Part shown: in pieces, positions 20,912 through 61,642 of the stretch
Numbering within the stretch: position 1 is the first letter of the stretch
Layout: the number at the start of each line of letters is the position of its first letter
Source: a bacterium
GTDB taxonomy: Bacteria; SZUA-182; DTGQ01
Assembly (NCBI GenBank): GCA_023512255.1
Contig: JAILZY010000010.1
Span: forward strand, 2,246-66,245
Reading direction: 5' to 3'
Length of the DNA: 64,000 bases
Made by a program: the position numbers and the translations under genes
The notes under the pieces: generated by a model
Databases searched by the model: none
The model's input: only the letters and a program-made list of their open reading frames with translations
What the model was told of the DNA's origin: nothing

Positions 20912-20937
20912 GGTGGGAGATTTTTGAATCTCCCACC
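20912..20937 (-). terminator. Candidate intrinsic terminator downstream of the 1119-aa gene (ggtgggagat-ttttga-atctcccacc)
   Basis: Perfect 10-bp inverted repeat with a 6-nt loop. On the minus strand it is followed by a moderately T-rich stretch. Confidence 0.4.
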
Positions 20938-21021
20938 TCAAGTCTAAGAAATCGCATCTTAAATCGCACCTTCCTGCCGTGTGCTCTTTTTAGCACAATG
21001 ACAGGCAACTACTAGCTTGGC

Positions 21022-24694: not shown

Positions 24695-26965
24695 TTAGAA
24701 TTGATCATGACAAGCCCGGCACATGTTACTGCCCGGTGCTTCCGAATAATTATCCTGAACGAGCAATTGGCCATGTTTGCCTTTCTGTCCTGGAGCGGGA
24801 CGTGGCTCTCCGGTAATGGTTCCATCCCAGGCGGTTGCGGCTGCATGGACATTATGGCAGGTCAGACACAGCACACCATCTGTAGCTGTATTGTTTCCAG
24901 CAGTAATCCCCAGCGGGGAGCCGCTCTTTCCGCCATAAAATTGTTTTGGAAATGCCGTGCAGGTATTGCGTCCATTGGGAACCTTATCAGCTCCAACCGG
25001 ATGAGTCGTCCCCTGAGCCATTGGGTCAGGATTAGTTGCCGTGCAGTGGCATTGCTCGCAGTAGCCATTAGCCTCGTACGGGGAGGCCTTGTCATTTTCG
25101 CTCAACCGATACAAGTAAGGCGGTTTGGTATTGATATGGACATCATGGCAGGTGCCGCAGAAGATCTGTCCATCGACTGTGCCGTAATCATCCATGACTC
25201 CGCCTGCTGAACCAGGCTTGCCATCGGCTTTTAGGAATTTTGGAACACCAACACCTCCGGCGGAAATTATATTCTCGCGGGTATTGAAGCTGACCGGTTT
25301 GCAGGCAAAACGGTGACTTTGCCGACCGGTTGTATTCAGGAGAGAGCCGTTTTTCTCATAACTGCCGACAATATTAGAATTACCATGACAGCCGTAGCAC
25401 ATGGCTTCATAGCGGTCAAGAGGATCGGGTCTTAAGGCAATGTCTCCCTGGCTTCCCCAATTCAGTTCTTTGGCTGGAACCCTCATCAGGGCGTCAATAT
25501 CAGCGCGCAGAGGAGACACAACCTTCATGTCTCTTGGATCATCCTTGTCATTGGAATGGATAAAATGGCAGAACATACAGCCGCCGCATTTAACCACCTT
25601 TTCTCCTCTAGCAGATGTGGCCTTGAAGGTTCTGGTAACCCGGTTCTTCGGATCGGTTCTGGTTTTAAAATGCAGCCCGCCATTGGCTTCAAGCATTGCC
25701 CGGCTTTTCGGATGCTTAGGATCGTTATGGCAATATTCGCACAGGGCAGTATCATCATCTTTAAAAGATGCGTAACGCAGGAAGCTCGGATTGCCCTCTA
25801 TCTCAGAGGTATGGGCTCCGTGGCAAGAGGTGCAGCCGAAGATCTGCTGATCGAAAGAAGCAGAGGAACCATCTGCGTAGGAGCCGTCTAGTTTAAAAAT
25901 AAGACCATTCCCCGGTAGTTTTCCTTCATGGCATCCAGAGACTCCGCAGGAGGTCTTAGCCCACCGCTGGCCCAGTGGGTGGTGAGCACGGTTTGCTTGC
26001 AATTTTGGAGCATTTGGCCAAGTAGTAGTTGACAGGTGGCAGGAGGTACACTTTTGTGATTCATAGATCACACTTGAAGCCCCGGCATTCCTTAATACTG
26101 TCTTGAATCCTGGGTCGGCTGTTCCAAAGGTGAAGACTCCCAGCGGTTCCAGCCTATCGATGAATATCAAAGCATCATTTTCAGGATTTTGAGTATCATG
26201 ATATCCATCATGGGGACGGTGGCAGGCTTCACACTGAGGATCGGTCGCTTCACCAGAGTGGATATGGACGAGGGGCCTACCATTAATGTCTTTGGCCTTG
26301 CTAGCTTTTGGGTGGCATTGGCGGCAGAATTGCCTTCGGTCATGAGTTTCTCCCGCACTGGCAGTTGTTGAATTCAGCCGCAGATAATCACCATGCCCTG
26401 ATTCATCCTTGTTTGGCTGCTTGTGGGGATTGTGGCAGGAGCCGCAATAGAAACCCTCGGTTTTTGAGAAGGGAAAGCCGATAACCTCAGCCTCTCTGCT
26501 TCCATCTCCTTCGGTGGTGCTGATATAGCTGGTTCCTCCATCTGCATTGGGTTGAAATCTGGCCCCCATGACATGGTTGGCACTGCCTCCCAAGAAAACA
26601 TTACCATTGGCATTATTCAGATCACTGAATCTGCCTCCATATTGGCCGGTTCCCTTCATCCGCAACCCAGATTCAATCTGGGGAAAATCTTTATTACCCT
26701 GATAGTGGCAGCTGGCACACAGGTCTTTGACCGTTGTCTGCTTCCCCTGGACTTCTCCTCGTGCCCAGATTCTGGCCCCTTTTCCAGCGTGAGGGATGTG
26801 GCAGTTGGCGCAAACCTGCTTGGTTGATCCTGAGACCTCACACAGGTGCCCGTTGTAGGGTGTTTGCTTTGATCCATCGACTGCGTAAGCTGTGGGGGAA
26901 CAGCAGAACAAGATAAATAGACAAATTCCGAAAAAAGATAGTCTCGCTTTTAGTCTTTTATTCAT
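24695..26965 (-). CDS. Multiheme c-type cytochrome (about 14 CxxCH plus one possible CX4CH), secreted
   Basis: Start chosen at MNKRLKARLSFFGICLFILFCCSPTAYA (signal peptide, GAGAGGGG RBS). The track ORF extends 27 codons further upstream. Heme motifs CANCH, CASCH, CGSCH, CRQCH, CEACH, CTSCH, (CGVSGCH), CTSCH, CEYCH, CMFCH, CYGCH, CGTCH, CEQCH, CLTCH, CRACH. Confidence 0.85.
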   Translation of the reverse strand: MNKRLKARLSFFGICLFILFCCSPTAYAVDGSKQTPYNGHLCEVSGSTKQVCANCHIPHAGKGARIWARGEVQGKQTTVKDLCASCHYQGNKDFPQIESGLRMKGTGQYGGRFSDLNNANGNVFLGGSANHVMGARFQPNADGGTSYISTTEGDGSREAEVIGFPFSKTEGFYCGSCHNPHKQPNKDESGHGDYLRLNSTTASAGETHDRRQFCRQCHPKASKAKDINGRPLVHIHSGEATDPQCEACHRPHDGYHDTQNPENDALIFIDRLEPLGVFTFGTADPGFKTVLRNAGASSVIYESQKCTSCHLSTTTWPNAPKLQANRAHHPLGQRWAKTSCGVSGCHEGKLPGNGLIFKLDGSYADGSSASFDQQIFGCTSCHGAHTSEIEGNPSFLRYASFKDDDTALCEYCHNDPKHPKSRAMLEANGGLHFKTRTDPKNRVTRTFKATSARGEKVVKCGGCMFCHFIHSNDKDDPRDMKVVSPLRADIDALMRVPAKELNWGSQGDIALRPDPLDRYEAMCYGCHGNSNIVGSYEKNGSLLNTTGRQSHRFACKPVSFNTRENIISAGGVGVPKFLKADGKPGSAGGVMDDYGTVDGQIFCGTCHDVHINTKPPYLYRLSENDKASPYEANGYCEQCHCTATNPDPMAQGTTHPVGADKVPNGRNTCTAFPKQFYGGKSGSPLGITAGNNTATDGVLCLTCHNVHAAATAWDGTITGEPRPAPGQKGKHGQLLVQDNYSEAPGSNMCRACHDQF

Positions 26966-27208
26966 CTTTCGATCCCCTCTCTTCCATAAGCACTCTCTCC
27001 CAACCAAGGTTAAATATTGTTTATCACTCGAACCTAACATTAACAAACCACTTTATCACTTTTAAAATCACTTTTAAAATTCTAAAAATTGATCGCTGGT
27101 TAAGTTATCATTATCCCACTCCTTCCCTTAATCCTTATAGAATTATATAGCCGTTTAATATAGCCGTTTATCAATCGCTACCTAAGCTAACGCTTATTTA
27201 AGGCTTAC

Positions 27209-28291
27209 TTATTTAAGATTTGTATCCTTAATGATATAAATCTGATTGACTTCCTGATCAGTCAGGTAAATGGTGTCATCACGGCCAATGAATATTCCAG
27301 TTGGCATCTTGAAATATATTTTGCCCTCTTTTCCATCCAGCCATTTGATTGCACCAATAAATTTTCCATCCGGCCCAAATACCTGGATACACTTCAGTAG
27401 AAGATCGGTTACATAAGCCCGGCCTCGACGGTCGACACCGACTCCTGTCAGCCGAGAGAACTGACCAGCTCTTTCCCCGCTTTCACCTCCAATCTGAAAA
27501 AGCTCAGCTCCATCCGGCTGAAAAACCCGAACCCGGGCGCACATACCTTCAGGAACGAAGATCCGATTCTGATCATCAAAACAGACTATCCCAGGCGTAC
27601 AAAACATACCCTGTTCCTTGCCTTTAAAATAGCGTAAAAATTTGCCATGCAAGTCATAAATCCAGATATGGCCGTTTGAGGCATCACTGACATAAAGCTG
27701 ATTACTCTTTTTATCAATGGCAATACAGCCGGGCGAGGCGTTTTGATATTTGTCATCTGGGGATAGAGCTGATTTAGAGGAAAATTCTTCTACAAACTCA
27801 CCTCGAGGGGTAAAAACCAGGATTTTTTCCCGCTTGACATCACAGATGTATACTTTGTCTTGGCTGTCTATGGCAATGCTGAACGGCTGGAGAAACTGCC
27901 CTGGCCCTTTTCCTTCCTTGCCGAATTTGGATAAGAATTTACCATCACGGCTATAAATCAATACCTCGGAGGGGATATTTTTTAGGACATAGAGATCTCC
28001 TTGGGAATTCTGGACCATATGAATTATAATGCCGCTGCTTTTGCCGCCCACCGCGGCAGATGGTCCGGAATCGCCCATGGTCCCGATCAGCTTAACCGTC
28101 CTGTTTTCAACCTCCTGCTCCACGGTCTGCTCATCGGTGCGGTCGCTTGCTTTTTGTTTAGTCGCTTGCTCGCCGGCTACAGCCTGCTCTTTGGCTTCAG
28201 CCTTGGCCAGCGTAGGCCGTGGAGCAAGCAAAAAGTGGAGCAGCAGACCACTCAGCAGGAAAATCCATAACATGGATGAAGATTTTTTCAT
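27209..28291 (-). CDS. NHL-repeat beta-propeller protein, secreted
   Basis: Signal peptide MKKSSSMLWIFLLSGLLLHFLLAPRPTLA. NHL blades LTGVGVDRRGRAYVTDLLLKCIQVFGPDGKF, GIFIGRDDTIYLTDQEVNQIYII and others. Confidence 0.75.
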   Translation of the reverse strand: MKKSSSMLWIFLLSGLLLHFLLAPRPTLAKAEAKEQAVAGEQATKQKASDRTDEQTVEQEVENRTVKLIGTMGDSGPSAAVGGKSSGIIIHMVQNSQGDLYVLKNIPSEVLIYSRDGKFLSKFGKEGKGPGQFLQPFSIAIDSQDKVYICDVKREKILVFTPRGEFVEEFSSKSALSPDDKYQNASPGCIAIDKKSNQLYVSDASNGHIWIYDLHGKFLRYFKGKEQGMFCTPGIVCFDDQNRIFVPEGMCARVRVFQPDGAELFQIGGESGERAGQFSRLTGVGVDRRGRAYVTDLLLKCIQVFGPDGKFIGAIKWLDGKEGKIYFKMPTGIFIGRDDTIYLTDQEVNQIYIIKDTNLK

Positions 28292-28481
28292 AATTTTTAT
28301 CCCCCTCGAGGTTTTTCCTTTAATCGTAAATCATAAATCATAAATTTCCATTAATCGTAAAGATGGTTTAAGCCGATTTTTAGATTAGAAGCAGAGCGCC
28401 TTTTTGCCCTTGCTGTTTAACCATCACTATTTTTTTACACGTTTCTTTTTACACGAGCTTACACAGCATAACCTACAAAAA

Positions 28482-28497
28482 TGCAAAAGAAGTACCA
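28482..28497 (-). promoter_or_regulatory. Candidate sigma-54 (-24/-12) promoter for the NHL-1/cytochrome-1 module: TGGTAC-ttctt-TTGCa
   Basis: Reverse complement of 28483-28497 gives GG-N10-GC with a TTGCA -12 box, about 190 nt upstream of the NHL-1 start. One deviation from the TGGCAC consensus. Confidence 0.45.
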
Positions 28498-28755
28498 TCC
28501 ATATTTTTAAAGAAGTACCATACATCTTTTTATAGTGTTAAGGCAGATGTCATGTTAAGCCCTAGGAAGCCAATGATCATTTATTTACAAATGATATACT
28601 GTTACATTATAATACGAAAGAAAACCCAATATCAACATCCAGGTTGCGAGGTTGCCGACAAAAAGAAAAGAAAGGGGTTTGTGGCTATTAGACATATATC
28701 GGTCATTTCAACAATAGAATATTACCTGAAAATAGAAATTACCTGGCTGGGACTC

Positions 28756-30816
28756 CTAAAGCATCCCATAATGGCAATTAAAACATAATCCGCTGCCATG
28801 CTCATACACTTGGCCTTGAAAGCTTCCACCAATGGCATTATCAATAATTAAAAGTTTTCCGGCATTTAATCTTCCGCTTTGACTGATACCATCATGCCTA
28901 GTTACGGCTGAATGAACGCTGTGGCAGGACTGACAGGTGATATCTCCCTCCAGGGTATCATTTGATGTTTGCCCGCCAAACCCACCACTGAAGCCTGAGA
29001 TAACATAGCCTTGAAAATTATCGCCAAATTGAACCGATTTTTGCTTCAGAGGCCTGTTGACCGGATGGGAGGATTCGCACTCGGCAGATGCGGGTTTGCT
29101 GGTATGGCAGGCGATGCACAGGGCAGAGCCAGAATAGTCCCGGGTTGCGTTCGGCTCTCGAAGGTAAGCTGTGCGCCGATCAATAAATTTCTCGGAGGAG
29201 CGGATAGGGGGCGAGTCCTGCCGGTGGACATTGTGGCAGCTTCCGCACCAGATTCTCCCTTTCTCGACTCCGTAATCATTCTGACACTTTTTTTCCCAAC
29301 CATCGGAAACAACCTGTTTCCCATCCCCAAAAGGATTAATAATATTGATATTTTTGGAAGGCACTACATTAAACCGATGAGAGAAGTAATGGTCCTCTAC
29401 ATTATCGAGCAGCAGAGCATTTTTTTCATTGTCCGTATCTTTTGCTCCTACGATTTCGGCTCGTGAGTGGCAGCCGTAGCAGGCATCCTCGTAATCACGA
29501 CTATCCTGATCCTGCAATTTGTCAGCCCACTGAAGATTTACTGGTGCAATCCGCATGATCACATCCACCGAAGCAGAGGAATTTTCTTGGTTAGCTCGCT
29601 CATCATCTGTCTGATATAGAGCCGCAGGATCATTCGGTGATTTATGGATAGAGTGGCAGAATAGGCACTCATTTTCATTCTGGGGCGGCCCGATCGTGCG
29701 CCCGACCTGATAATGTCCGCGGCCTGGAGTGGATTCAAGATCACCGACCGCTTTATCAGAATGGCAGGCAGCACAAAAGGCCCCGGGATGAGCCGGATCG
29801 TAGTTGCTGATAATTTGCGGGTTGAGATACTTATCATTAGTGCCCTGATGAGGATCATGGCAGGATTTGCAATACAGCTCTCCCTGAGGGGAGAGTGGGC
29901 CAGATGCGGTCTTCTGATGTCCTTCGACTGTAGCCTCAGCTCCTTTCCCCATCGGGTGGTGCTCATACCGGACCAGGCAATCATCGCCATTCAGCGGAGC
30001 GTTTAGCGCCCCCTCACCCCCCCCTTGAGCTCGATGGCAGCCGTAGCAGCTAGCTGCATAAGAGTCAGCCACAGGATCGGAAAATTCGCTAACATTAGGG
30101 ACTGCTCTGAAGGGGATGCTGCTTTCAGTCTTAATGATCTTTTTCCCTCGATTGGGGGAATAATGCGGAGTATGACAGTCAAAGCAGCCATCTTTGGTTC
30201 CATGCCCCTTGGCCTTACCCTGAACCAGGGGAGCGTGGCATTGGATACAAAATTCATAATGCTTTTGTGAGGTAGTTTTGATTAAACCAGGCACTGACTC
30301 CCGCAGGTAATCGCCCCCCTCAAAGGGATCGGTATGAGGATTATGACAGCTTCCACAATAAAATCCATCTCCTCCCTCCTTAGGCCGCAGGGGAAAGGTT
30401 TCACCCCACTCTTTGCGGGTTACCGCCGGACCATTAATTAGAGCATTGGCTCCCATGGGATGATCATTACCTTCCTCAATGAATATATAATCCCTAGCTC
30501 CGAAAAGATGAGTACCATGACAGGTGCTGCACAGTCTTTTTGTTCCGGTAAACTCACCACTTGCCGCCCTAGCCCACAGAAGGTCATCAGCGGCATGGTG
30601 AGGCAGATGACAGGCTCCGCACGGATCTTCCGGTACACACCAGGCATGAGGCCCATTCAGCGCCCAGGCGAACTGAAAGCCGAAGACGACCAGCAGGAGG
30701 GAAATAATAAGGCCTATTATCCCTTTCGAAATACCTATACCGATTATCCACCGGAGAGCGATTCTCAGAAAACTACTTCGATACATCGAATACTGAAACA
30801 ACTTTTGTCTCCGCAT
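28756..30816 (-). CDS. Multiheme c-type cytochrome (14 CxxCH) with an N-terminal membrane anchor or signal
   Basis: CGACH, CSTCH, CGSCH, CIQCH, CFDCH, CYGCH, CKSCH, CAACH, CLFCH, CYGCH, CGSCH, CIACH, CQSCH, CFNCH. Hydrophobic N-terminus IIGLIISLLLVVFGFQFAWA. Alternative start MYRSS at 30786. The 5' end overlaps the 3' end of NHL-2 by 14-44 nt. Confidence 0.85.
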   Translation of the reverse strand: MRRQKLFQYSMYRSSFLRIALRWIIGIGISKGIIGLIISLLLVVFGFQFAWALNGPHAWCVPEDPCGACHLPHHAADDLLWARAASGEFTGTKRLCSTCHGTHLFGARDYIFIEEGNDHPMGANALINGPAVTRKEWGETFPLRPKEGGDGFYCGSCHNPHTDPFEGGDYLRESVPGLIKTTSQKHYEFCIQCHAPLVQGKAKGHGTKDGCFDCHTPHYSPNRGKKIIKTESSIPFRAVPNVSEFSDPVADSYAASCYGCHRAQGGGEGALNAPLNGDDCLVRYEHHPMGKGAEATVEGHQKTASGPLSPQGELYCKSCHDPHQGTNDKYLNPQIISNYDPAHPGAFCAACHSDKAVGDLESTPGRGHYQVGRTIGPPQNENECLFCHSIHKSPNDPAALYQTDDERANQENSSASVDVIMRIAPVNLQWADKLQDQDSRDYEDACYGCHSRAEIVGAKDTDNEKNALLLDNVEDHYFSHRFNVVPSKNINIINPFGDGKQVVSDGWEKKCQNDYGVEKGRIWCGSCHNVHRQDSPPIRSSEKFIDRRTAYLREPNATRDYSGSALCIACHTSKPASAECESSHPVNRPLKQKSVQFGDNFQGYVISGFSGGFGGQTSNDTLEGDITCQSCHSVHSAVTRHDGISQSGRLNAGKLLIIDNAIGGSFQGQVYEHGSGLCFNCHYGML

Positions 30817-31783
30817 TAACTACATAGATTTTATTGTTTGTCCAGGCCAGACCGAGAGGCTGGCTGAACAGCCTGGGATTGCTCGACTGGCGCATAGAGT
30901 CAAGATATTCCCCCTTCTGGTTGAATACCTGGACCGAATTTGAGATAAAATCAGAAACATAAATCCGATCTCTGGCATCAATAGCCAGGCCATAGGGTCG
31001 AATAAATTCTCCCTCTTTGGTGCCGTTTTTGCCAAAAGCATAGCGAAATTTAAAATCAGGACTAAAAGACTGGACCCTGAAATTACCCGCATCAACGACA
31101 TAAATATTTCCTCGGCTATCGAAAGCAATATGAGCCGGACCGCTCAATCCTCCGTCTCCTCCGCCGGCAGTGCCGAAGGTGGCTTTTAATTCTCCAGAGA
31201 GTGTGTAGACTCCGATCTGGTGATTGCAGGCATCAGAGATATATAGCCGATTATCGAATGGATTGTAAGCGATAAAAGGGGCACAAAGATCGCGGCCTTT
31301 CTCTGGCTGGTGAAGGGGAAATTGCCCTTTAAGTTCGCCATCTGAGCTATAAATCAAAATCTTGTCTGTGGCCAGATCCGATACGTACACCCGATCCTGC
31401 CTGTCAATCGCTATCCCTGACGGCTCGCTCAGGTTTACTCCTTTGCCTTTTCCCTTGCCCTGCTTGGTCGGCTCTTGGCCAAAAGCAAACAGTAGCCGAC
31501 CCGAAGGATCAAATACCCGAATCTCATTGGTCAGCGAGCAGACAACAAAGAGGCGACCTTTGGAATCAAGGGCCAGCGCCGTGGGCTTGCCAGATGCTGG
31601 GCCTTGAAAACCAAGCTGAATCTGCCGCTCAAGCTGATAAAAGCTTTCTTTGCCGGCAGGTTGGCCAGCAGCCAGAGCTGAGCTGCTCAAGAGGAAGAGG
31701 GGAAAAAGCAGCGTCGCCAAGACAGATGCCAGAAAACCTTTTGGATTCAAAATCGGCTGGACAGTCATTATAATAGTCATCAT
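30773..31783 (-). CDS. NHL-repeat beta-propeller protein, secreted
   Basis: Signal peptide; blades GIAIDRQDRVYVSDLATDKILIYSSDGEL, NRLYISDACNHQIGVYTLSGEL, GNIYVVDAGNFRVQSFSPD, DRIYVSDFISNSVQVFNQKGEY, NKIYVVNAETKVVSVFDV. Confidence 0.75.
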   Translation of the reverse strand: MMTIIMTVQPILNPKGFLASVLATLLFPLFLLSSSALAAGQPAGKESFYQLERQIQLGFQGPASGKPTALALDSKGRLFVVCSLTNEIRVFDPSGRLLFAFGQEPTKQGKGKGKGVNLSEPSGIAIDRQDRVYVSDLATDKILIYSSDGELKGQFPLHQPEKGRDLCAPFIAYNPFDNRLYISDACNHQIGVYTLSGELKATFGTAGGGDGGLSGPAHIAFDSRGNIYVVDAGNFRVQSFSPDFKFRYAFGKNGTKEGEFIRPYGLAIDARDRIYVSDFISNSVQVFNQKGEYLDSMRQSSNPRLFSQPLGLAWTNNKIYVVNAETKVVSVFDVSK

Positions 31784-31937
31784 AATATAAAATATTTTGA
31801 TAATATAAAATATTCGATAAATATTCGATAAAATATTGCCCCCGCCACTGAGGGTTAAAATTCAAGCTTTCTGCTTGCTGAGGTCATAATTTTTCATCTT
31901 GAAAAACATCAATTATCTTCATTTTGAAGCTATAGTA

Positions 31938-31953
31938 AGCAAAAGATGTGCCA
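31938..31953 (-). promoter_or_regulatory. Candidate sigma-54 (-24/-12) promoter for the NHL-2/cytochrome-2 module: TGGCAC-atctt-TTGCt
   Basis: Reverse complement of 31939-31953 is a perfect TGGCAC-N5-TTGC match, about 145 nt upstream of the NHL-2 start codon and immediately downstream of the sigma-54 activator gene. Confidence 0.5.
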
Positions 31954-32173
31954 TAACCAAAACAAGATGCTATAACCAGCAGTAAACAAGAAATGTACCA
32001 TAACAAATAAGACCTTACCCTAAGACAATTGGCCGGGGAGAGTGTCTCTTAGGGTTAATCCCTGATACCTTGTATTACACATATTATGAAAAAAAAATAT
32101 AGATTTAGTCAATACTAATCTTGCTCTTTTTAGGGGAGAGCAAAAACAAGCCACACAGCTTTAGCACTTGTTT

Positions 32174-33727
32174 TTAGCTTGGCTCGTCAAGGCCATATCG
32201 TTTGATTTTCTTGTGTAAACCCTGCCTGGTAATCCCAAGCAAAGAGGCTGCTTTGTTCTTATTGCCCTGGGCTTCTTGAAGCGCTTTTCGGATAAGTCTA
32301 ATTTCCAAAGCCTTAACCTGCTCAGGGAGTGAATAATCAACGGCATCTTTCTCATGATCTTGCAGACTCTTGCTGAAATTTTGCAGCTCCCGTGAGCATT
32401 TGTCAATGGTAATTCGCTCCCCCTCAGGAGTTAGCGCAACCAGATGTTCTACCTCCCGCAGCAATTGGCGAACATTGCCCGGCCATGAATACTCCTCAAA
32501 CAGCCGCAAGACTTCAGGCGCAAAGCCAGCTACCCTTTTTTTGAATCTACGGCTTACTCGATCCAGAAAGGCTAAGGCCATAGTTACAATATCCTCCCGC
32601 CGCTCCCTGAGAGGCGGAATGTGGATCTCGACTGAAAACAGACGGAAGAAAAGATCCTCCCTGAAACGCCCCAAGGCCACCTCCTGGCGCAGGTCCTTGT
32701 TGGTTGAGCTGATGATCCGCAGATTATAGCGCATTACCTTGTTGCTTCCCAGCCGACAGCCTTCCCCCTCCTGAATGGCCCGCAAGAACTTAGGCTGAAT
32801 AGCCAGAGGCATATCAGCTACCTCATCCAGAAACAGTGTTCCGCCGTCAGCCTCCTCAAATCGACCCTTGCGGCTGGTAACCGCACCGGTGAACGCCCCT
32901 TTTTCATAGCCAAAGAATTCGCTTTCCATAAGATTTTCGAGAATCGAGGCACAGTTTACAGCCACAAAGGGTTTGTCGCGGCGGTCACTGCCTTCATGGA
33001 TCATTCGAGCAATAAGCTCCTTGCCGGTCCCGTGCTCGCCGTGGATGAAGACATTGACCGGAGTTTTGCTGATCATCCGCACCTCATCCATGATATTTCT
33101 CATAATCGGGCTTTCGACAATAAAGGGTATATCCCGAAAATAATTTCTTTCGAACCACTCGACCTCGCAGTTTAACTGGCTAGAGATTTGCAGAATCTCT
33201 CGGCTTAAAAGGATGCCCTCGATAGAGGTTGCAAGGAAAGAGGCGATTTCCTGCAATTGCTCCACATCTTCTGCGCTAAATCGCCCATCTCCCTTCTTGT
33301 TTAGTACCTCGATGGCTCCGATTACACCACGGCCAGTCAGACTTCTGATCGGAGCACAGATTAGACTGTGGGTAACAAAGCCGGTCTTGGCATCAATTTC
33401 AGTATGGAAACCGTGTCGCTTGTCCAGGTCATGCTCTACAATGCATTGATCGGTAGAGATAACCTTGCCGACAACACTTTCATCTTTGGGAGGCTCAATC
33501 TTCATTCCTTCTAGACCAGTGCCGAACATCGACCAGATTGTCCCCTTTTGTGCATCAGCCACAAAAACAGTGCAGCGTTCGGCATCCATAATTTTGGGCA
33601 GAATGGCTACGTAAAATTTCAGCAGGGCCTCATAATCGCCGACTGTCCAGGATTGGGTAACCTGCTCCAGACGAAATCTAAGGTTGGCAAGTCGCTGATG
33701 AATCATTTCAGGTTCATTGGCAGCCAC
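32174..33727 (-). CDS. Sigma-54-dependent transcriptional activator (bacterial enhancer-binding protein) with an N-terminal GAF sensor domain and a C-terminal Fis-type HTH
   Basis: GAF region ([17 protein letters not shown]..., ...[24 protein letters not shown]). AAA+ sigma-54 interaction domain ([25 protein letters not shown] motif, ...LFFRL..). [24 protein letters not shown]. No REC domain. Confidence 0.85.
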
Positions 33728-34143
33728 TCTTGTTCCTCCACCTTTGTGTAAATAATGTTTACTATTGTAACCTGGTTGACATATTATAACCTGGTTGACA
33801 TCTCACCTTCTGCATGATAACTCATGGAGGTGATGCCTCATCAAGACTCTTGGCTAATAACCTCGAGAGGCTATTTTTATTGTCTTTATATTTTACCATA
33901 CTACTACATTTATTGAATACTTGCCAGACAAAGTCAAAAAGAATTTTGAAGTGTTTATAAGTTCTAGGCTTGGCCGTCTTAACTATCTGTGGAATAAACT
34001 AGGGGTATTTTCGTCAACACTGTTTACAGCAAAATCCATATCCTGCCCTTCCCAGATAATCCTGATAACTGTGGTTGAGCGCTGAGTTTTTATCATAATT
34101 TCAGTTAGTTACCGGTATACTACAACTGAAGAGACAGGTTTAT

Positions 34144-34160
34144 TGGCATGTGGTTTGCAT
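34144..34160 (+). promoter_or_regulatory. Candidate sigma-54 (-24/-12) promoter facing the giant gene: TGGCAT-gtggt-TTGCAT
   Basis: GG-N10-GC spacing with a TTGCA -12 box. Divergent from the sigma-54 activator gene. About 500 nt upstream of the giant CDS and about 20 nt upstream of a small ORF. Confidence 0.45.
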
Positions 34161-34190
34161 CCGATATAAAGTAGTTTGCATCGGGAGATC

Positions 34191-34385
34191 ATGGCTGTAA
34201 TTGCTGTAGTTCAAAATGCACTCTCATCACAGCGGATCAAAGAAGGAGGATTTCACATCATGGCAAGCTCATTAATTAATATGGCAGGTATTATTTCCGC
34301 AGAGCAGGTTATTTTCTTGGTAATGATGATCAGCCTTTCCTTTATCCTAGTTAAACGAAGAAAATTCCCCGTACTGATCAAGTAG
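34191..34385 (+). CDS. Possible small (64-aa) membrane protein immediately downstream of the sigma-54 promoter
   Basis: ATG at 34191 with a GGGAG RBS. C-terminal hydrophobic helix IISAEQVIFLVMMISLSFILV followed by KRRK. No homology recognised; the call is speculative. Confidence 0.25.
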   Translation: MAVIAVVQNALSSQRIKEGGFHIMASSLINMAGIISAEQVIFLVMMISLSFILVKRRKFPVLIK

Positions 34386-34674
34386 GCTTAGGCCAGTTTT
34401 TTTCTAGGTATATGAGTGTAGATTGATTTGCGTAGTTTATTAGGCAAACCCAAAGACACACAGAATACAGAATGAGGAGGAGGGGAGAGTTTGGGGGATT
34501 TCAAAAAATTCCCTCTTTCCTTAAAGAGGGATCGAGAGGCAAAGCTTGAAAAAAAGCCTCTCGATCCCTTCTCCAAAAGAAGGTTTTAAGAGAAGATCTT
34601 CTGGCGAAGGAGGTGAGCTTATAGAGGGGAGAGAGAGTAAAAATTTTTCATAGTAGTAGCAAGAGGTTAGGTTT

Positions 34675-37600
34675 GTGAGGTCAAAGAGCAAAGAATTTTT
34701 TTCAGATCAGAAAGGAGTGCTAAGAATCATGTCTAAGGTAAAAGACAACTGGTGGGCCAAGTTAGTAAGCTCATCCTGTCTTGTGCTCTTTACCATAATA
34801 GCCCTTAGTGTTGGGTGTATGGGGATTTGGGTTAGCAAGACAGAGGCAGGAGGGGTAAACCTTTCGCTGAGTGGACAGGCGATTTATCCTCAGCCCGTGG
34901 ATCAGGAAGTGCCGGAAATTTACGGGACCAAGGTCGTCTGGATGCAGCAGGGGAATGATTATTATTACAAAGTATTCCTTGGCGATCTTGAGACCGGCAC
35001 CAGCAGGCAGCTTGGGAGCAGCCCGGCTGCGGAAAAGTATCCGGCCATCTGGGAGAATAAGGTTATCTGGATGGATTATCGAAGCATCATGGATGATCCA
35101 ACAGTAGAAAACAAATATGCATACATTTTCAAATACTATGATATGTATGGATATGACCTGGAGAAAAATCAGGAATTTCCCATTTGTACCAATCCAGAAT
35201 GGCAGGGATATGGAGATATCCAGAAGGATCGGGTTGTGTATGCTGATATGCGTACCGGCAGCCCGGATATCTTCCTCTATGACCTGAGAAGCAGTCAGGA
35301 ATACGCCATATGTATTCATCCCGCCTGGCAGGGAAATCCGGTCATTTATGATAATTATGTCATCTGGATGGACGAGCGCTCAGGCAATTATGATATCTAC
35401 GGCCTTGATCTAGCGACCGGTAAGGAATTTCCCATTTGCACCGCGGCTGATAACCAGGCTTATCCAGCTATCAGCGGCACAAAAGTGGTCTGGCAAGACA
35501 AAAGAAGTGGCAACGACGATATCTACCTCTATGATCTGGCCACAAAACAGGAAATCGCTATCTGTACCCATCCAGGAAAGCAGCAGGTGCCTGATATTTG
35601 CGGCAATATCATTGTCTGGCAGGATGACCGTAATGGGAATTGGGACATCTATGGTTATGATCTGACTACCTATCAGGAATTTCAGATTACTAACCAGAGC
35701 GGCGATGAGACCTTCCCTGCCATATCTGGTGATCGGATCGTCTGGGTGGATTCAAGGAGCGGCCACAAAAATATTTATGCGGCTACTTTGCCGTCTGGCT
35801 TTGCTCCACAAGCCAATAATCAGGTCAGAAATCGGGAGTCAATCACTGCTGCTAGCTCACTGGGTGACTCTATCACGGCCATGTCATTTGCTGCTAGCTC
35901 ACTGGCTAGCTCTATCGCCACCACGATTGCTCCGAATATCGAGATCTTAATACCCGAATTAATACCTGAAATCACCATACCCGCGATCACCTCTCCCATC
36001 ATCGAAGTGCCAAAAACCGGCCCCTCAATTATAGGCTACGAAAATAGCGGTTGTAAAAAAGAGATTACCTCTACCACCATCCGCGCTCCTGAGGAAGAGA
36101 AATTTACCTATAAGTATCAAGACAATATCCTTTATCTTTTTCATGAGAACGCCTCTTACAATTGCTGTATTGAGGAAATCGCCATCACTATGGAGGTGGT
36201 AGGAAATATCATCAATATTTATGAAGATGAAAGGCTTGAGGGAGGCGGCTGTCGATGTCTCTGCACCTATGATATAACCACTAAGATCGGCTGTCTTGAG
36301 CCTGGCACCTATGAGGTGAAATTCTTCAACAAGCAAACCGGCAAATTGCTCGGCGTGATCAAAGAGGTGGTTATTCCCCCGATTCCCTGTCTTCTTTCTG
36401 CCGCCGCACCGGTACAAAAATGCTGTCCACTTCCCTGCACCGATCCCATAAACCGCTGCTGTCCGTATGCCTCTGCTGTGCCAGAGCAAAGATGTGTGGT
36501 CTGTCCGGTGCCTTGGTGGCCATGTCCATGCAGCTATTTCGATGATATGGAGCAAGATACTTGGACATTCAGCCGAGGGATCAGCTCTTCTTCGTCCATC
36601 TCTACGCCGCTGCCACCTCCCCCAATTCAAGAGATTGATTATTCAACTGCCCAATACGTTTCACCGAAAAGATCAATCTGGGCCTATGTAGCCAGCTATC
36701 TTGAGACCGCGACCGATGCCAGTATTACTGGAGCAGGATACCGCACCCTTGGGGAAGGAGCAGAGCTTGCTACCGCTTCCAGCACCTCAGCATCCCTAGC
36801 GGCAGCAGCCAATGCCAGGGTAAGTGCTTCTCGGTCGTTTGAGCTTTGCGGCTGTGAGAATCTCAAGCTGAAGCTTTCTTACCAGATCCGCTACTCCATA
36901 AGCAAAATTAATCAATATCTCTATCGCCGCGTCGCGGTTGAGGTGATGGCTTATGATGCTGCTGGCAATCAGATGGGCAAGCGCACCTATGTCCTGTTTA
37001 GGAATCCTATCCAGGTATTGAGTCAGGAAGATATTGATATTGTGCTCCCTGCTCAGTCTGCATGGCAGACCCTGGCAAGATCCCTCCAAAAAGATATACC
37101 GATCAAATGGTGTGAGGCGAGAAAACTTCAGGTAATTTTAAAAGCCGAAGGATATTTCCCTGCTGGTCAGGGTGACTTTGTAGAAACATTCTGGGATGAT
37201 CTGGCCATTGAGGGGCAAAACTGTAATATCATCCTGCCGTGCTGTCCGCTGGCTCAGGCTGAGGTTGGGGCGGCAGATGCCCTGTGGTGTCGGCCCTGTC
37301 CTGTGGCTACGACGACAGCAGCCAGCCAGGCTCTGTGGTGCTGGCCCTGCCCGGTGGCTTCTGTTGATGCGGCAAGTGCAGATGCTCTGTGGTGTCGGCC
37401 ATGTCCCTATGAGATTCATATGCCAGATGGGACGATTAGGCGTTGCTGTCCTGTGGCTACGACGACAGCAGCCAACCAGGCTCTGTGGTGCTGGCCCTGC
37501 CCGATAGCGACTGGTGTTGAGGTCAATGTTCAGAGCTGGTGTTGTCCGCTGGCTAAGGCCGAGGTAGATACCCAGGTTTTGTGGTGTCGGCCCTGTCCTG

Positions 37601-40600
37601 TGGCCACTCAGCTTGATAATAACCTGATTCGCTGGTGCTGTCCGCTGGCCAAGGCTGAGGTGGATAGTCAGTCTTTGTGGTGCTGGCCCTGTCCGTATGT
37701 AGTGGAAAAGGATGGTCAGCTTACCCGCTGGTGTTGTCCTGTGGCTCAAAATGTAGACACGCAACTTTGGTGCAGGCCATGTCCTTATCCCAAGGCTACT
37801 GATAAGGAGCTTAATATATACTGCTGTCCTGTGGCTACGGCGACGGCGGCTGGCCAGGCAATGTGGTGTCGGCCTTGTCCTTTGGCTTCAGATGTAGCAG
37901 ATGAGGCACTCAAGCTTTGGTGCTGTCCGCTGGCTCAGGCTGAGGTTGGGGCGGCAGATGCCCTGTGGTGTCGGCCATGCCCTGTGGCTACGACGACGGC
38001 AGCCGGCCAGGCTCTGTGGTGCTGGCCCTGCCCGGTGGCTTCTGTTGATGCGGCAAGCGCAGATGCTCTGTGGTGTCGGCCATGTCCGGTTCCGATAACT
38101 CCGCTGCCTGACAATTGCCTAATTGGAACGGTTAAAGAAATTCAACATCATGTCTCGGTCGGACGATCTGATCTAAAGGTAGTGGATGAATCGGGAAATA
38201 TTAGGGAGATATCTGTACCGCTTACCCAGGCCGAAAATCTCAAGGTTGGCGATAAGGTTAAAGTTTGCATTGAGACGGATAAAAATGGCGAGATTATTTC
38301 AATCACCATTGAAAAGTACGATCCTAACGCACAGGTAGTGCCTCCAGCTCAGATTTGCTGTCCGCTGGCTCAGGCTGAGGTTGGGGCGGCAGATGCTCTG
38401 TGGTGTCGGCCATGCCCGATAGCTTCTGTTGATGCGGCGAGCGCAGATGCCCTGTGGTGTCGGCCATGCCCTGTGGCTACGACGACGGCAGCCGGCCAGG
38501 CTCTGTGGTGCTGGCCTTGCCCGATAGCTTCTGTTGATGCGGCGAGTGCAGATGCCCTGTGGTGTCGGCCATGTCCCTATGAGATTCATATGCCAGATGG
38601 GACGATTAGGCGCTGCTGCCCTGTGGCTACGGCGACGGCAGCCAACCAGGCTCTGTGGTGCCGGCCTTGTCCTGTGGCTTATGTTGATGCGGCGAGCGCA
38701 GATGCCCTGTGGTGTCGGCCCTGTCCTGTGGCTACGACGACGGCAGATGGCCAGGCCCTGTGGTGTCGGCCCTGTCCTGTGGCCACTCAGCTTGATAATA
38801 ACCTGATTCGCTGGTGCTGTCCGCTGGCCAAGGCTGAGGTGGATAGTCAGTCTTTGTGGTGCTGGCCCTGTCCGTATGTAGTGGAAAAGGATGGTCAGCT
38901 TACCCGCTGGTGTTGTCCTGTGGCTCAAAATGTAGACACGCAACTTTGGTGCAGGCCATGTCCTTATCCCAAGGCTACTGATAAGGAGCTTAATATATAC
39001 TGCTGTCCTGTGGCTACGGCGACGGCGGCTGGCCAGGCAATGTGGTGTCGGCCTTGTCCTTTGGCTTCAGATGTAGCAGATGAGGCACTCAAGCTTTGGT
39101 GCTGTCCGCTGGCTCAGGCTGAGGTTGGGGCGGCAGATGCTCTGTGGTGTCGGCCCTGTCCTGTGGCTACGACGACGGCAGCCGGCCAGGCTCTGTGGTG
39201 CTGGCCCTGCCCGATAGCTTCTGTTGATGCGGCAAGTACAGATGCCCTGTGGTGTCCGCCCTGCCCGGTGGCTACGACTACGGCAGCCGGCCAGGCTCTG
39301 TGGTGTCGGCCCTGCCCGGTGGCTTCTGTTGATGCGGCGAGCGCAGATGCCCTGTGGTGTCGGCCCTGCCCTGTGGCTACGACGACGGCAGCCGGCCAGG
39401 CTCTGTGGTGCCAGCCAGGAGTAGTTACCGAATGTTTAGAGGAAACCTCAGGAGCCTTGGACATTGAAGGCGCTCAGGCAGATGTGGGTGATGAGGTCAA
39501 GATCAAGATTCGGATTCAGAATGCGCCCGGTGTGGTATCTTCCTTCGGCTTTGAGGTTATCTACAGGTCGGATATTTTAGAGTATCAAGGCTTTGAGCGC
39601 GGAAATCTCGTACTTTCCTTCCCCATGATTGATGTTAGCCCAAGCGGCCCAGACAGGCTCAAGGTGGGAGGATTATCAGCGAATCCTATACCGCAGGGAG
39701 CAAGTGGTTCGGTTGTGGTGCTAAAATTCAAGGTCATAGGTGGTGTGAAAGATGAATGTTATCCCTTGAGTCTGGAAAATCTGGTAGATGATCTAGTCAA
39801 ATTCTCCAAAACTGGCGGCTGTCTATGCATCAAGGATACTGTACCACCTCAGATTACCTGCCCGGGAGATAGGGTTATCGGCCAGATAAATAGCGATGGT
39901 ACGCCTGCTGACGATCCTGAGGTAGTTGCCTTCCTCGCTGAGGCCAAAGCATGGGATGCAGTTGATGGTGAGGTTGCGGTTTCAGCCACCTTCCAATTTG
40001 ATCAGACCAGTGGAGTTACCAGCACTAGTGAGCCTGTCCCTGGAGCTGAAATAATTATAGATGCAGACGATCAAGCCAAGATATTTTCTGGCAATCCTCT
40101 TATCCTTCCTCCTGGCCAGACCACAGTAATCTTTACCGCTAGAGACAAAGCTGGCAACAGCTCTTCCTGCACAGCTACGATCACCATTCAGCCAATGGTA
40201 TGCGAGGAGGATGAGTCCGGGCAGCTCGATATTAAAGGCACGGAAGGCAGGATAGGAGAGGAAGTGAAGATTCCGATTCGGATTCAGAATGCGCCCGGTG
40301 CCATCTCTGCTCTTGGCTTTGAGGTAAGCTACAAACCCTCTGTCCTTGAGTATGTTGGGTTTGAGCGAGGAAGCCTGGCGGCCTCTTTCTCTGTCTTCGA
40401 TGTCAACCCAATTGCCTCTGGCAGGCTCATTGTAGGTGGATACTCCACCCGAGGTATCCCGCAGGGAGCAAGCGGCGATCTGCTTATCCTGAAGTTTAAG
40501 GTTAAGGATGGTATGGAAGGTGGATGCTATCCCTTGAAGCTGGATGGGCTGACGGATGATGTGGTTAACTTTACAGCCAGCCCGGGTTGCTTCTGTATCA

Positions 40601-40854
40601 AGAGCTGCAACGGCGATCAAAATGGAGATGGAGTTATTACTCCTGCTGATGCGCTCATAGTGTTCAAGTGTTACCTTGGATCAGGACCTTGCGGCGATTG
40701 CGCTGATGTTGATGGCAACGGCAGTGTTACTCCGGCTGATGCCCTGTGTCTGTTCAAGAAATACCTGGGTCAGCCTTCTTGTCTGGATAACCTTATTAAG
40801 CTTAATGCTCAAAATAAGGGAACCTTTGCCGTAAGTGGAAAATCAGACGCCTAA
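34675..40854 (+). CDS. Giant secreted multidomain protein (2059 aa): signal/anchor, PD40 (TolB-like) 6-blade beta-propeller, Cys-rich linker domain, two arrays of about 26 'WC[RW]PCP' 20-residue cysteine repeats, cohesin, HYR, cohesin, type-I dockerin
   Basis: Hydrophobic N-terminus WWAKLVSSSCLVLFTIIALSVGCMGIW. PD40 blades ...YDMYGYDL, PDIFLYDL, YDIYGLDL, DDIYLYDL, WDIYGYDL, KNIYAATL. Repeats ALWCRPCPVATTTAAGQALWCWPCPVASVDAASAD... Cohesin-like DIEGAQADVGDEVKIKIRIQNAPGVVSSFGFEVIYRSDILEYQGFERG and DIKGTEGRIGEEVKIPIRIQNAPGAISALGFEVSYKPSVLEYVGFERG. HYR-like PPQITCPGDRV...TARDKAGNSSSCTATITI. Dockerin DQNGDGVITPADALIVFK / DVDGNGSVTPADALCLFK. Confidence 0.8.
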   Translation: MRSKSKEFFSDQKGVLRIMSKVKDNWWAKLVSSSCLVLFTIIALSVGCMGIWVSKTEAGGVNLSLSGQAIYPQPVDQEVPEIYGTKVVWMQQGNDYYYKVFLGDLETGTSRQLGSSPAAEKYPAIWENKVIWMDYRSIMDDPTVENKYAYIFKYYDMYGYDLEKNQEFPICTNPEWQGYGDIQKDRVVYADMRTGSPDIFLYDLRSSQEYAICIHPAWQGNPVIYDNYVIWMDERSGNYDIYGLDLATGKEFPICTAADNQAYPAISGTKVVWQDKRSGNDDIYLYDLATKQEIAICTHPGKQQVPDICGNIIVWQDDRNGNWDIYGYDLTTYQEFQITNQSGDETFPAISGDRIVWVDSRSGHKNIYAATLPSGFAPQANNQVRNRESITAASSLGDSITAMSFAASSLASSIATTIAPNIEILIPELIPEITIPAITSPIIEVPKTGPSIIGYENSGCKKEITSTTIRAPEEEKFTYKYQDNILYLFHENASYNCCIEEIAITMEVVGNIINIYEDERLEGGGCRCLCTYDITTKIGCLEPGTYEVKFFNKQTGKLLGVIKEVVIPPIPCLLSAAAPVQKCCPLPCTDPINRCCPYASAVPEQRCVVCPVPWWPCPCSYFDDMEQDTWTFSRGISSSSSISTPLPPPPIQEIDYSTAQYVSPKRSIWAYVASYLETATDASITGAGYRTLGEGAELATASSTSASLAAAANARVSASRSFELCGCENLKLKLSYQIRYSISKINQYLYRRVAVEVMAYDAAGNQMGKRTYVLFRNPIQVLSQEDIDIVLPAQSAWQTLARSLQKDIPIKWCEARKLQVILKAEGYFPAGQGDFVETFWDDLAIEGQNCNIILPCCPLAQAEVGAADALWCRPCPVATTTAASQALWCWPCPVASVDAASADALWCRPCPYEIHMPDGTIRRCCPVATTTAANQALWCWPCPIATGVEVNVQSWCCPLAKAEVDTQVLWCRPCPVATQLDNNLIRWCCPLAKAEVDSQSLWCWPCPYVVEKDGQLTRWCCPVAQNVDTQLWCRPCPYPKATDKELNIYCCPVATATAAGQAMWCRPCPLASDVADEALKLWCCPLAQAEVGAADALWCRPCPVATTTAAGQALWCWPCPVASVDAASADALWCRPCPVPITPLPDNCLIGTVKEIQHHVSVGRSDLKVVDESGNIREISVPLTQAENLKVGDKVKVCIETDKNGEIISITIEKYDPNAQVVPPAQICCPLAQAEVGAADALWCRPCPIASVDAASADALWCRPCPVATTTAAGQALWCWPCPIASVDAASADALWCRPCPYEIHMPDGTIRRCCPVATATAANQALWCRPCPVAYVDAASADALWCRPCPVATTTADGQALWCRPCPVATQLDNNLIRWCCPLAKAEVDSQSLWCWPCPYVVEKDGQLTRWCCPVAQNVDTQLWCRPCPYPKATDKELNIYCCPVATATAAGQAMWCRPCPLASDVADEALKLWCCPLAQAEVGAADALWCRPCPVATTTAAGQALWCWPCPIASVDAASTDALWCPPCPVATTTAAGQALWCRPCPVASVDAASADALWCRPCPVATTTAAGQALWCQPGVVTECLEETSGALDIEGAQADVGDEVKIKIRIQNAPGVVSSFGFEVIYRSDILEYQGFERGNLVLSFPMIDVSPSGPDRLKVGGLSANPIPQGASGSVVVLKFKVIGGVKDECYPLSLENLVDDLVKFSKTGGCLCIKDTVPPQITCPGDRVIGQINSDGTPADDPEVVAFLAEAKAWDAVDGEVAVSATFQFDQTSGVTSTSEPVPGAEIIIDADDQAKIFSGNPLILPPGQTTVIFTARDKAGNSSSCTATITIQPMVCEEDESGQLDIKGTEGRIGEEVKIPIRIQNAPGAISALGFEVSYKPSVLEYVGFERGSLAASFSVFDVNPIASGRLIVGGYSTRGIPQGASGDLLILKFKVKDGMEGGCYPLKLDGLTDDVVNFTASPGCFCIKSCNGDQNGDGVITPADALIVFKCYLGSGPCGDCADVDGNGSVTPADALCLFKKYLGQPSCLDNLIKLNAQNKGTFAVSGKSDA
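37240..39415 (+). repeat. Coding tandem-repeat arrays (60-bp units encoding WC[RW]PCP) in two blocks (37240-38095 and 38356-39415), including a 100%-identical 361-bp duplication (37600-37960 = 38779-39139)
   Basis: Direct comparison of the sequence lines shows identical text at an offset of about 1180 bp. The shadow ORFs on the opposite strand are artefacts of this repeat. Confidence 0.9.
39440..40790 (+). other. C-terminal cohesin, HYR, cohesin and dockerin module of the giant protein (approximate domain span)
   Basis: The domain-signature sequences are listed under the giant CDS. Dockerin calcium-binding repeats lie at about 40606-40790. Confidence 0.6.
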
Positions 40855-61634: not shown

Positions 61635-61642
61635 ACCAGAAT

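Follow-up and report, generated by a model that had tools for sequence, protein, structure and literature searches.

The region described here lies in a 64-kb stretch of DNA (the window; contig JAILZY010000010.1 of assembly GCA_023512255.1) from a bacterium of the SZUA-182 lineage, and centres on the gene for a GAF-domain activator of sigma-54-dependent transcription. In order of minus-strand transcription, the activator gene is followed by NHL-2, MHC-2, NHL-1, MHC-1 and a gene for a Reg_prop/Big_5 protein, where NHL stands for secreted NHL beta-propellers and MHC for multiheme cytochromes; in the opposite direction lie a small membrane open reading frame (ORF) and the gene for a giant surface protein with cohesin and dockerin domains (Table 1). 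Gene content was read from an ORF map together with Pfam and NCBIfam profile scans of the window ORFs. These confirm the gene list of the initial annotation, which had been made from the sequence alone, including its description of an activator with a GAF sensor and no receiver domain and its claim that all structural proteins are secreted or membrane-anchored: on inspection, every one of them starts with a hydrophobic signal or anchor. The Reg_prop/Big_5 gene, which is conserved and closes the cytochrome cluster, had been omitted. The initial annotation had also placed three promoters under one activator, as a single regulon. Based on sequence comparison we favour, with moderate confidence, a different organization with two neighbouring sigma-54 units, in which the adjacent activator would drive the small ORF and the giant, and another activator would drive the NHL–cytochrome modules.

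Table 1. Genes and predicted regulatory elements of the region (window coordinates; aa, amino acids)
Feature	Position	Strand	Details
GAF–AAA+–HTH_8 sigma-54 activator (bacterial enhancer-binding protein, bEBP), 517 aa	32174..33727	-	GAF 1.1e-12, Sigma54_activat (PF00158) 2.8e-65, AAA_lid_14, HTH_8 5.7e-12
Small membrane ORF, 41 aa	34260..34385	+	N-terminal ~30 residues conserved across species
Giant surface protein	34729..40854	+	Likely start MSKVKDNWW; ORF open from 34675 (34675-40854 = 2059 aa)
NHL-2, secreted six-bladed NHL beta-propeller	30773..31783	-	Pfam NHL 2.1e-26; signal peptide
MHC-2, 14-heme c-type cytochrome	28756..30816	-	14 CXXCH; Paired_CXXCH_1 1e-27
NHL-1, secreted NHL/DUF5128 six-bladed propeller	27209..28291	-	DUF5128 7e-21, NHL 4.2e-16; signal peptide
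MHC-1, 15-heme cytochrome	24695..26965	-	14 CXXCH + 1 CX4CH; likely start MNKRL; ORF open to 27046
Reg_prop + Big_5 envelope protein, 1119 aa	21022..24381	-	Reg_prop 1.4e-24, Big_5 1.6e-23
Stand-alone receiver, 133 aa	19959..20360	-	Best match to NtrC-type receiver domains
Predicted sigma-54 promoter, small ORF and giant	34144..34159	+	TGGCATGTGGTTTGCA; matrix score 19.0, window maximum
Predicted sigma-54 promoter, NHL-2/14-heme cytochrome	31938..31953	-	TGGCACATCTTTTGCT; matrix score 18.1
Predicted sigma-54 promoter, NHL-1/15-heme cytochrome	28482..28497	-	TGGTACTTCTTTTGCA; matrix score 16.4
Fourth predicted sigma-54 promoter, receiver gene 19959-20360(-)	20445..20460	-	TGGCATCCAATTTGCT; matrix score 16.5
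Fifth, weaker sigma-54-like site	56966..56981	+	TGGTATAAAGATTGCA; matrix score 14.0
Distal palindrome, proposed upstream activator sequence	34013..34027	.	GTCAACACTGTTTAC; sole perfect GTNAACNNNGTTNAC match in window
Three proximal palindromes, proposed autoregulatory operator	33748-33762, 33766-33780, 33785-33799	.	27-64 bp ahead of activator start codon
Near-invariant 49-bp block with sigma-70-like promoter TTGACT-18-CATAAT	32074..32122	-	Consensus scan 10/12
Sigma-70-like promoter TTGATA-18-TATAAT, upstream of NHL-1 sigma-54 site	28606..28635	-	Consensus scan 11/12

The three matches to the sigma-54 consensus reported in the initial annotation, ahead of the small ORF, NHL-2 and NHL-1, are present at the positions and on the strands it gave. 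When the window was scanned with an approximate generic sigma-54 matrix (modelled on the published consensus), as that annotation had proposed, all three were among the four best-scoring sites of the 64 kb: 34144(+), 31953(-), 20460(-) and 28497(-), in that order. All four are intergenic and face the next gene, and all fit TGGYAY-N5-TTGCW with a spacing of exactly 10 nt between the GG and GC dinucleotides; the sigma-54 sites lie 74-190 nt from start codons. A test of the consensus pattern against dinucleotide shuffles, independent of the matrix, found 5 matches to TGGYAYN5TTGCW in the window where 0.25 were expected, a 20-fold enrichment, and none of 100 shuffled sequences reached 5. The looser TGG-N8-TTGC is not enriched (18 matches versus 11.8 expected in the window), so that the signal resides in the full consensus. 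By all sequence tests applied, the predicted sigma-54 promoters are real. Short tandem duplications coincide exactly with regulatory elements at three places: a 23-nt repeat (28486-28532) duplicates the -24 half of the NHL-1 promoter, the -12 element TTTGCATC occurs twice, 22 nt apart, at the promoter of the giant (34153-34190), and the third case (33763-33801) falls on the proximal palindromes.

Relatives were found by a search with the 14-heme cytochrome, followed by gene-context look-ups. The complete layout, with the small ORF and giant diverging from an activator that is followed by NHL, MHC, NHL, MHC and Reg_prop/Big_5 genes, recurs in L081 (GCA_040755755.1), L082 (GCA_040752695.1) and L083; L087 has the same layout and intergenic sequence identical to that of L083, and the two were counted as one species. 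Conservation of the neighbourhood, a check named in the initial annotation, thus extends to three further species, both in layout and in the three promoter positions. All nine matrix matches scoring at least 14 in L081, L082 and L083 sit in orthologous intergenic regions and face a small ORF, NHL or cytochrome gene. Counterparts of the 34144 site are found at L081 6720(-), L082 6165(-), L083 5636(-) and L087 6826(-), those of the 31938 site at L081 8932 (CGGCAC...), L082 8687, L083 8734 and L087 9924, and those of the 28482 site at L081 12505 and L082 12739; L082 has an additional site at 17535, ahead of a third cytochrome. Phylogenetic footprinting shows the -24/-12 cores as conserved islands in otherwise diverged, repeat-interrupted intergenic alignments, the 28482-28497 site being the most conserved island of its alignment (A3). 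Taken with the orthologous positions, these islands remove chance as an explanation. The intergenic regions of L083 and L087 are filled and lengthened by inverted repeats (GTAACTACTCAGG...CCTGAGTAGTTAC) that resemble miniature inverted-repeat transposable elements or repetitive extragenic palindromic (REP) elements.

In more distant members of the lineage (L084, L085 and L086; cytochromes about 51% identical), NHL-NHL-MHC-NHL-MHC-(Reg_prop/Big_5) clusters are retained and NHL or MHC genes are preceded by sigma-54-like sites; neither an activator nor a giant gene was found beside these clusters. The last gene after the NHL–MHC modules is of the Reg_prop/Big_5 kind in L081, L084 and L086 and an SBBP/Big_5 variant in L083. 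An identical sigma-54-like site, TGGCATAGATTCTGCA (score 15.0), occurs at L084 6741(+) and L086 9819(+), within the 3' end of an NHL gene and ~180-200 bp ahead of the start of a large cytochrome gene, and may be an internal promoter.

The activator has a Walker A motif (GEHGTGKE) at residue 230 and the GAFTGA contact loop at residue 277, and its AAA+ Sigma54_activat domain and C-terminal helix-turn-helix (HTH) complete the set of features expected of a bEBP. It scores below all NCBIfam equivalog cut-offs (NifA 327 versus 529 (528.85) bits, NorR 324.5 versus 476, FhlA 274 versus 830). Full-length orthologues, GAF domain included, share 52-63% identity over residues ~5-515 (alignment A4) and come from metagenome-assembled genomes (MAGs) of Desulfobacterota, Nitrospirota (Thermodesulfovibrionia), Magnetococcales and Gammaproteobacteria and from many sediment metagenome contigs. 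Their recognition helix, including (I/M)KRY, is conserved throughout the family. In other phyla no NHL, cytochrome or giant genes were found near them, and the neighbours are heterogeneous.

A palindrome, GTNAAC-N3-GTTNAC, was surveyed with at most 1 mismatch in 462 kb covering 45 loci with orthologues in other phyla. Nearly all matches (50/54) are no farther than 1.2 kb from the activator gene, and all 50 of these are on its 5' side; the density is 0.59/kb near the gene and 0.011/kb elsewhere (~56-fold). Given this enrichment and the conserved recognition helix, GTAAAC-N3-GTTKAC can be assigned with good confidence as the predicted binding site of the family. At many orthologue loci, 96-193 bp separate a palindrome from a divergent sigma-54 promoter, and in L101, L102, L104 and L108 the gene facing the activator encodes a protein of ~230-250 aa with a type IV pilin/pseudopilin N-terminus (GFTLxE). 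Divergent targets elsewhere are pseudopilin or type IV pilin-like proteins or small membrane peptides, and the family may control envelope appendages generally. As read from these loci, the ancestral design is an activator gene, palindromes and a divergent sigma-54 promoter. Type II secretion system M/N genes occur close by the pilin-like targets.

The best full-length orthologues are largely from magnetotactic MAGs (L001-L017: YD0425bin50/bin7, HA3dbin3, HCHbin5, WMHbinv6 and Magnetococcus DMHC-8), the bins YD0425bin50/bin7, HA3dbin3, HCHbin5 and WMHbinv6 being those of Lin et al. 2018. A magnetosome-linked role was considered and dropped, as the 45 orthologues have a mixed set of neighbours, with no magnetosome genes among them. 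Some orthologues adjoin a class-II cyclic nucleotide phosphodiesterase (L004 11545-12309, L005 1865-2629) or a CHASE2 adenylate/guanylate cyclase (L107, L112 2427-4778). In the window a phosphodiesterase–cyclase pair is located 27 kb away, at 60813-63880(+), and the GAF domain of the activator retains N-K-x5-F-x3-D of the NKFDE motif. A cyclic nucleotide is a possible GAF signal, though the association is weak.

In the window, the distal palindrome is separated from the -24 element of the small-ORF/giant promoter by 124 bp, and the corresponding distance is 118 bp in L081, 120 bp in L082 and 117 bp in L083, so that the spacing is held even though the intergenic length ranges from 532 to 905 bp in the four species. 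The proximal palindromes are also conserved in the four species (alignment A1), the third copy being the product of a 19-nt tandem duplication. By contrast with the small-ORF/giant promoter, the palindrome is absent upstream of the NHL/MHC sigma-54 sites: in the four species, none of eight has a copy with at most 2 mismatches at a sensible position. NHL and MHC promoters that lack this palindrome are most likely served by a different activator, which would be encoded elsewhere.

From these directly observed elements, their enrichment and their conservation, we infer the following course of signalling, binding and transcription. In the first unit, composed of the GAF activator, its own palindromes and the divergent -24/-12 promoter, a small molecule bound by the GAF domain would release the AAA+ domain. 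A hexamer seated at the palindrome ~120 bp upstream would then remodel sigma-54 RNA polymerase at 34144-34159, leading to expression of the small membrane peptide and of the giant as an N-terminally anchored or secreted surface protein; the palindromes near the start codon of the activator suggest autoregulation. The second unit would be older and lineage-wide, and consist of the NHL and 14/15-heme cytochrome pairs followed by the Reg_prop/Big_5 protein. Each pair would be served by a separate sigma-54 promoter, probably with a promoter of the sigma-70 type farther upstream. The module of activator, small ORF and giant appears, then, to have been placed beside an older cytochrome cluster under independent sigma-54 control.

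NHL-2 matches NHL domains in the PDB at 1e-50. Its stop overlaps the start of MHC-2, and every relative, as well as a Thiobacillus cluster, shows the same overlap. MHC-1 is a paralogue of MHC-2, and all 14 CXXCH motifs and the matching distal histidines of their family are invariant (29-sequence alignment). MHC-2 has a marginal Pfam match to Mtrc-MtrF_II-IV_dom (35 bits, cut-off 30), and a sequence search of the PDB gave only marginal matches, to reaction-centre cytochromes, with no close solved structure. The propeller and cytochrome are translationally coupled and probably form an electron-moving complex, either periplasmic or at the cell surface, and an extracytoplasmic electron-transfer complex is the best functional guess for the pairs, judged by sequence and by analogy.

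Several observations weigh against the two-unit organization or against the roles given to its parts. No convincing upstream activator sequence was found for the 31938 and 28482 promoters, and the same activator could act at the NHL promoters via a site that is weaker or of another kind. Full synteny is found in four species that are fairly close relatives (translation initiation factor IF-2 79-83% identical), which makes conserved adjacency weak evidence either way. No rpoN gene was found in the 64-kb window, none of whose ORFs showed Sigma54 factor domains in Pfam. The cytochrome cluster contains no porin, cytochrome b, c7 partner, quinol-oxidising or secretion genes, and nothing in it indicates that the cytochromes are exposed at the surface. 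An AlphaFold2 model of MHC-2 from the 29-sequence alignment was unusable (predicted local distance difference test score, pLDDT, 38), and the function of the giant, whose main repeat has no known relatives, is guesswork.

The gaps in the cytochrome cluster would be accounted for if the NHL/cytochrome pairs were periplasmic redox proteins, serving for example in electron storage or the redox chemistry of soluble compounds, and the giant an unrelated adhesin or envelope neighbour. Consistent with this, the proteins carry only Sec-type signal peptides, the activator/giant unit is absent in distant relatives that retain the cytochromes, and orthologous activators elsewhere control pilin-like or small envelope proteins. 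We nevertheless hold such an arrangement to be somewhat unlikely. The cytochromes match doubled-CXXCH profiles and the MtrC/MtrF domain II/IV profile of Pfam, homologous NHL–MHC pairs occur in the Uet-like cluster of Thiobacillus (with cytochrome b, c7-type cytochromes and heme-maturation genes), and work on Geobacter metallireducens (Gmet_0556) and Desulfovibrio ferrophilus has linked NHL proteins with cytochromes of the outer surface.

The model of the initial annotation, in which all three (or four) sigma-54 promoters answer to the neighbouring GAF activator as parts of one co-regulated system, appears less likely still. The activator gene is located between the promoters in an arrangement preserved in four species, the unusual TGGYAY-N5-TTGCW flavour is common to all the promoters, no other activator gene was detected among the ORFs of the 64-kb window, and a TGTAAY word resembling a palindrome half-site occurs near the NHL promoters. 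This word is too short for significance, however, and the palindrome, strongly tied as it is to the activator gene, is missing from the eight NHL/MHC promoter regions. Distant relatives have sigma-54-like sites at NHL genes with no activator adjacent to the cluster, orthologous activators elsewhere are never near NHL or MHC genes, and the target of the family in other phyla is the divergent gene rather than the genes downstream. A search for upstream elements common to all three promoter classes, by k-mer enumeration and anchored stacks, yielded only AT-rich words and a shared box, TTCATAATATGTGTAA, that is clear only in the NHL-2 class and lies at variable distance. The claim of a single regulon is not upheld.

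That the -24/-12 matches are due to chance or belong to another factor, the genes being transcribed from ordinary sigma-70 promoters, is highly improbable: good sigma-70-like boxes do lie upstream of both NHL sigma-54 sites, one of them inside a near-invariant block, and rpoN was not observed among the window ORFs, but such boxes are compatible with tandem promoters, and the motif enrichment (matched by no shuffle), the top ranks in the window, the orthologous positions and correct orientation of 9/9 strong matches in relatives and the activator with intact GAFTGA encoded next door all argue for sigma-54.

The giant protein is built from an N-terminal hydrophobic anchor or signal, beta-propeller repeats of the Methanosarcina type (TIGR04275, 267 bits), Cys-rich WCxPCP arrays, a cohesin, an HYR-like domain, a second cohesin and a dockerin. 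It contains 26 WCxPCP and 7 WCCP repeats and 125 Cys residues. Pfam recognizes Cohesin in two stretches (6.4e-21) and a type I Dockerin_1 (1.1e-06), in which the duplicated segments D-x-N-G-D-G-x-(I/V)-T-P-A-D-A can be read from the translated sequence; for the WCxPCP block Pfam gave no match. Orthologues share 53-57% identity and vary in repeat number from species to species. A single database relative of the WCxPCP block was found, although composition filters probably hamper such searches and rarity is unproven. In this protein (P0240, JGI, 372 aa) the repeats are fused to a MopE-like 'putative metal-binding motif' (PF11617), which hints at a metal-related role. AlphaFold2 gave no usable model of the WCxPCP segment (pLDDT 32). 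The gene has a 300-nt internal repeat with 96% identity (37543-37842 versus 38722-39021) and tandem periodicities of 51, 54 and 105 nt, which suggest recent repeat expansion and call for caution on the accuracy of the assembly there. In the small ORF, the conserved N-terminal part (M-x-S-x-L-x-N-L..T-I-S-A..V..L) is shared with L081, L082 and L083, and the C-terminus varies.

Its two cohesins and one dockerin could allow copies of the giant to join head-to-tail, or to bind other cohesin/dockerin proteins. Pfam detected no further dockerin or cohesin, and no carbohydrate-binding module, in the window proteins scanned, those of the NHL and cytochrome genes included, and as the latter have no dockerin, nothing links them physically to the giant. 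A more speculative arrangement, in which the giant is a self-linking scaffold under GAF signalling whose WCxPCP arrays bind metals, minerals or heme, and which forms a cellulosome-like 'cytochrome scaffold' with the NHL/14-heme complexes, is very unlikely. If true, it would imply electron exchange with solids or partner cells, possibly on a cyclic nucleotide signal sensed by the GAF domain, in a lineage with no cultured members.

Other elements were noted in the intergenic regions. The 49-bp block at 32074-32122 lies downstream of the activator gene and ahead of the NHL-2 sigma-54 site. It has hardly changed across four species with a protein identity of just 70-80%, and its flanks have diverged (alignment A2); the gap between block and sigma-54 site varies from 68 to 343 bp. 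It also holds an imperfect palindrome, GATTAGT-ATTG-ACTAAATC, and its conservation exceeds the needs of a plain promoter. The sigma-70-like boxes at the NHL/MHC regions are found at variable spacing to the sigma-54 sites. A block between the activator gene and the small ORF that is conserved in all four species, TACTATAGTTCTGGAATACTTGCCAGATAAAGT (33895-33935; alignment A1 columns ~400-440), has neither sigma-54 nor sigma-70 spacing. Strong hairpins at 34493-34582, between the small ORF and the giant, include a 13-bp stem (GGGATCGAGAGGC/GCCTCTCGATCCC) and possibly represent an attenuator or REP-like element. Another hairpin of this kind is located at ~20920-20950, and a G-rich 14/23-nt tandem repeat follows the Reg_prop gene (20803-20885). 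The Rfam scan of the window gave no known RNA.

Two of the sigma-54 sites in Table 1, at 20445 and 56966, are additions to the initial annotation. The former is 74 nt ahead of the receiver gene, just downstream of the cytochrome cluster, and no orthologous counterpart was seen in L081. The latter precedes a small membrane ORF (56977-57594) and the gene for a 787-aa secreted protein (57988-60351), neither of which has a Pfam or NCBIfam match.

The IF-2 protein is 68-98% identical to a handful of bacterial proteins and at most 50% identical to proteins of named organisms, which indicates a deep-branching unclassified lineage; a diderm envelope is indicated by LptC and LptA genes in L085, one of the relatives. 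Neither NHL-2 nor protein P0014 had a match in exact-sequence look-ups. An archaeal-type S-adenosylmethionine synthetase (PF01941, 2.2e-143) is encoded at 11024-12268(+), where the more distant relative L085 has a bacterial-type enzyme (1076-2221), and may represent gene replacement. An archaeal origin of the DNA, considered on account of this enzyme and a short IF-2, was rejected in view of the bacterial N-terminal extension of IF-2 and its bacterial relatives.

The initial annotation regarded the system as not described as a unit. This holds for the giant with its WCxPCP repeats, cohesins and dockerin, which is unfamiliar, but not for the remainder, since sigma-54/enhancer-binding control and NHL–multiheme modules are known already: NHL propellers beside doubled-CXXCH multiheme cytochromes occur in Uet-type clusters, Geobacter and D. 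ferrophilus, and in Geobacter RpoN is known to control cytochromes of extracellular electron transfer. The analysis provides a testable regulatory map for an uncultivated, deep-branching lineage, with conserved sigma-54 promoters for the NHL/multiheme pairs and a triad of activator, binding site and promoter for the Cys-rich cohesin/dockerin protein. Of more general use are the cognate palindrome of a widespread GAF-activator family, common to many sediment bacteria including magnetotactic ones, and the caution that gene adjacency by itself over-predicts regulons. Should the cytochrome pairs be surface electron conduits, their promoters would mark the onset of electron exchange by such organisms in sediments.

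The closest likeness in gene layout is to the Uet clusters of 'Ca. Tenderia electrophaga' and Gallionella, where secreted six-bladed NHL genes likewise adjoin cytochromes of the doubled-CXXCH/cytochrome c3 family (NHL proteins UetH/I flank the undecaheme UetJ) and where two NHL genes or two pairs are often present. The likeness is one of layout, and there are differences: here there are 14-15 hemes per cytochrome, not 11, a Reg_prop/Big_5 protein follows, and the region 19959-45536 lacks the beta-barrel porin UetC, the triheme c7 proteins UetD/E/G, the tetraheme UetA, a peptidyl-prolyl isomerase and CcsAB. The cluster in a Thiobacillus MAG has the same overlapped order NHL, MHC, NHL, MHC, there beside cytochrome b, c7-like cytochromes and ResB/CcsA; each pair here has a sigma-54 promoter, whereas none is found at the equivalent places in Thiobacillus. 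A conduit of the Mtr type is not matched, as there is no porin gene and scores for the DmsE and GSU2203 families are far below cut-offs.

The giant has the cohesin and type I dockerin of a cellulosome-type scaffoldin, while dockerin-bearing enzymes and a carbohydrate-binding module were not found in the window. It more resembles the scaffoldin-like proteins of anaerobic methanotrophic archaea (ANME), which combine several cohesins and a dockerin in organisms with many multiheme cytochromes and no cellulose-degrading context; a role in cell-surface assembly has been proposed for these non-cellulosomal proteins. Unlike them, the giant is bacterial, stands under a predicted sigma-54 promoter, carries ~33 WCxPCP/WCCP repeats and has no dockerin-bearing partner nearby.

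The activator shares GAF, AAA+ with GAFTGA and a Fis-type HTH with NifA, NorR and FhlA, which are its best full-length NCBIfam matches, and also their logic of an inverted-repeat activator site ~100-200 bp upstream of a -24/-12 promoter. It differs from them in scoring far below the equivalog cut-offs and in its predicted targets, which are envelope proteins. The NifA site, TGT-N10-ACA, is different from GTAAAC-N3-GTTKAC. Compared with the RpoN regulon of Geobacter sulfurreducens, the activator has a GAF sensor and not a phosphorylated receiver, the organism is unrelated and the neighbouring target is a giant cohesin/dockerin protein. In both, sigma-54 and enhancer-binding proteins control cytochromes or pilins, in part by prediction here, and the G. 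sulfurreducens RpoN consensus TTGGCACGGTTTTTGCT resembles the sites described above. The parallel extends to the orthologues of the present activator, which face sigma-54 promoters of pilin-like and pseudopilin genes just as PilR acts on pilA.

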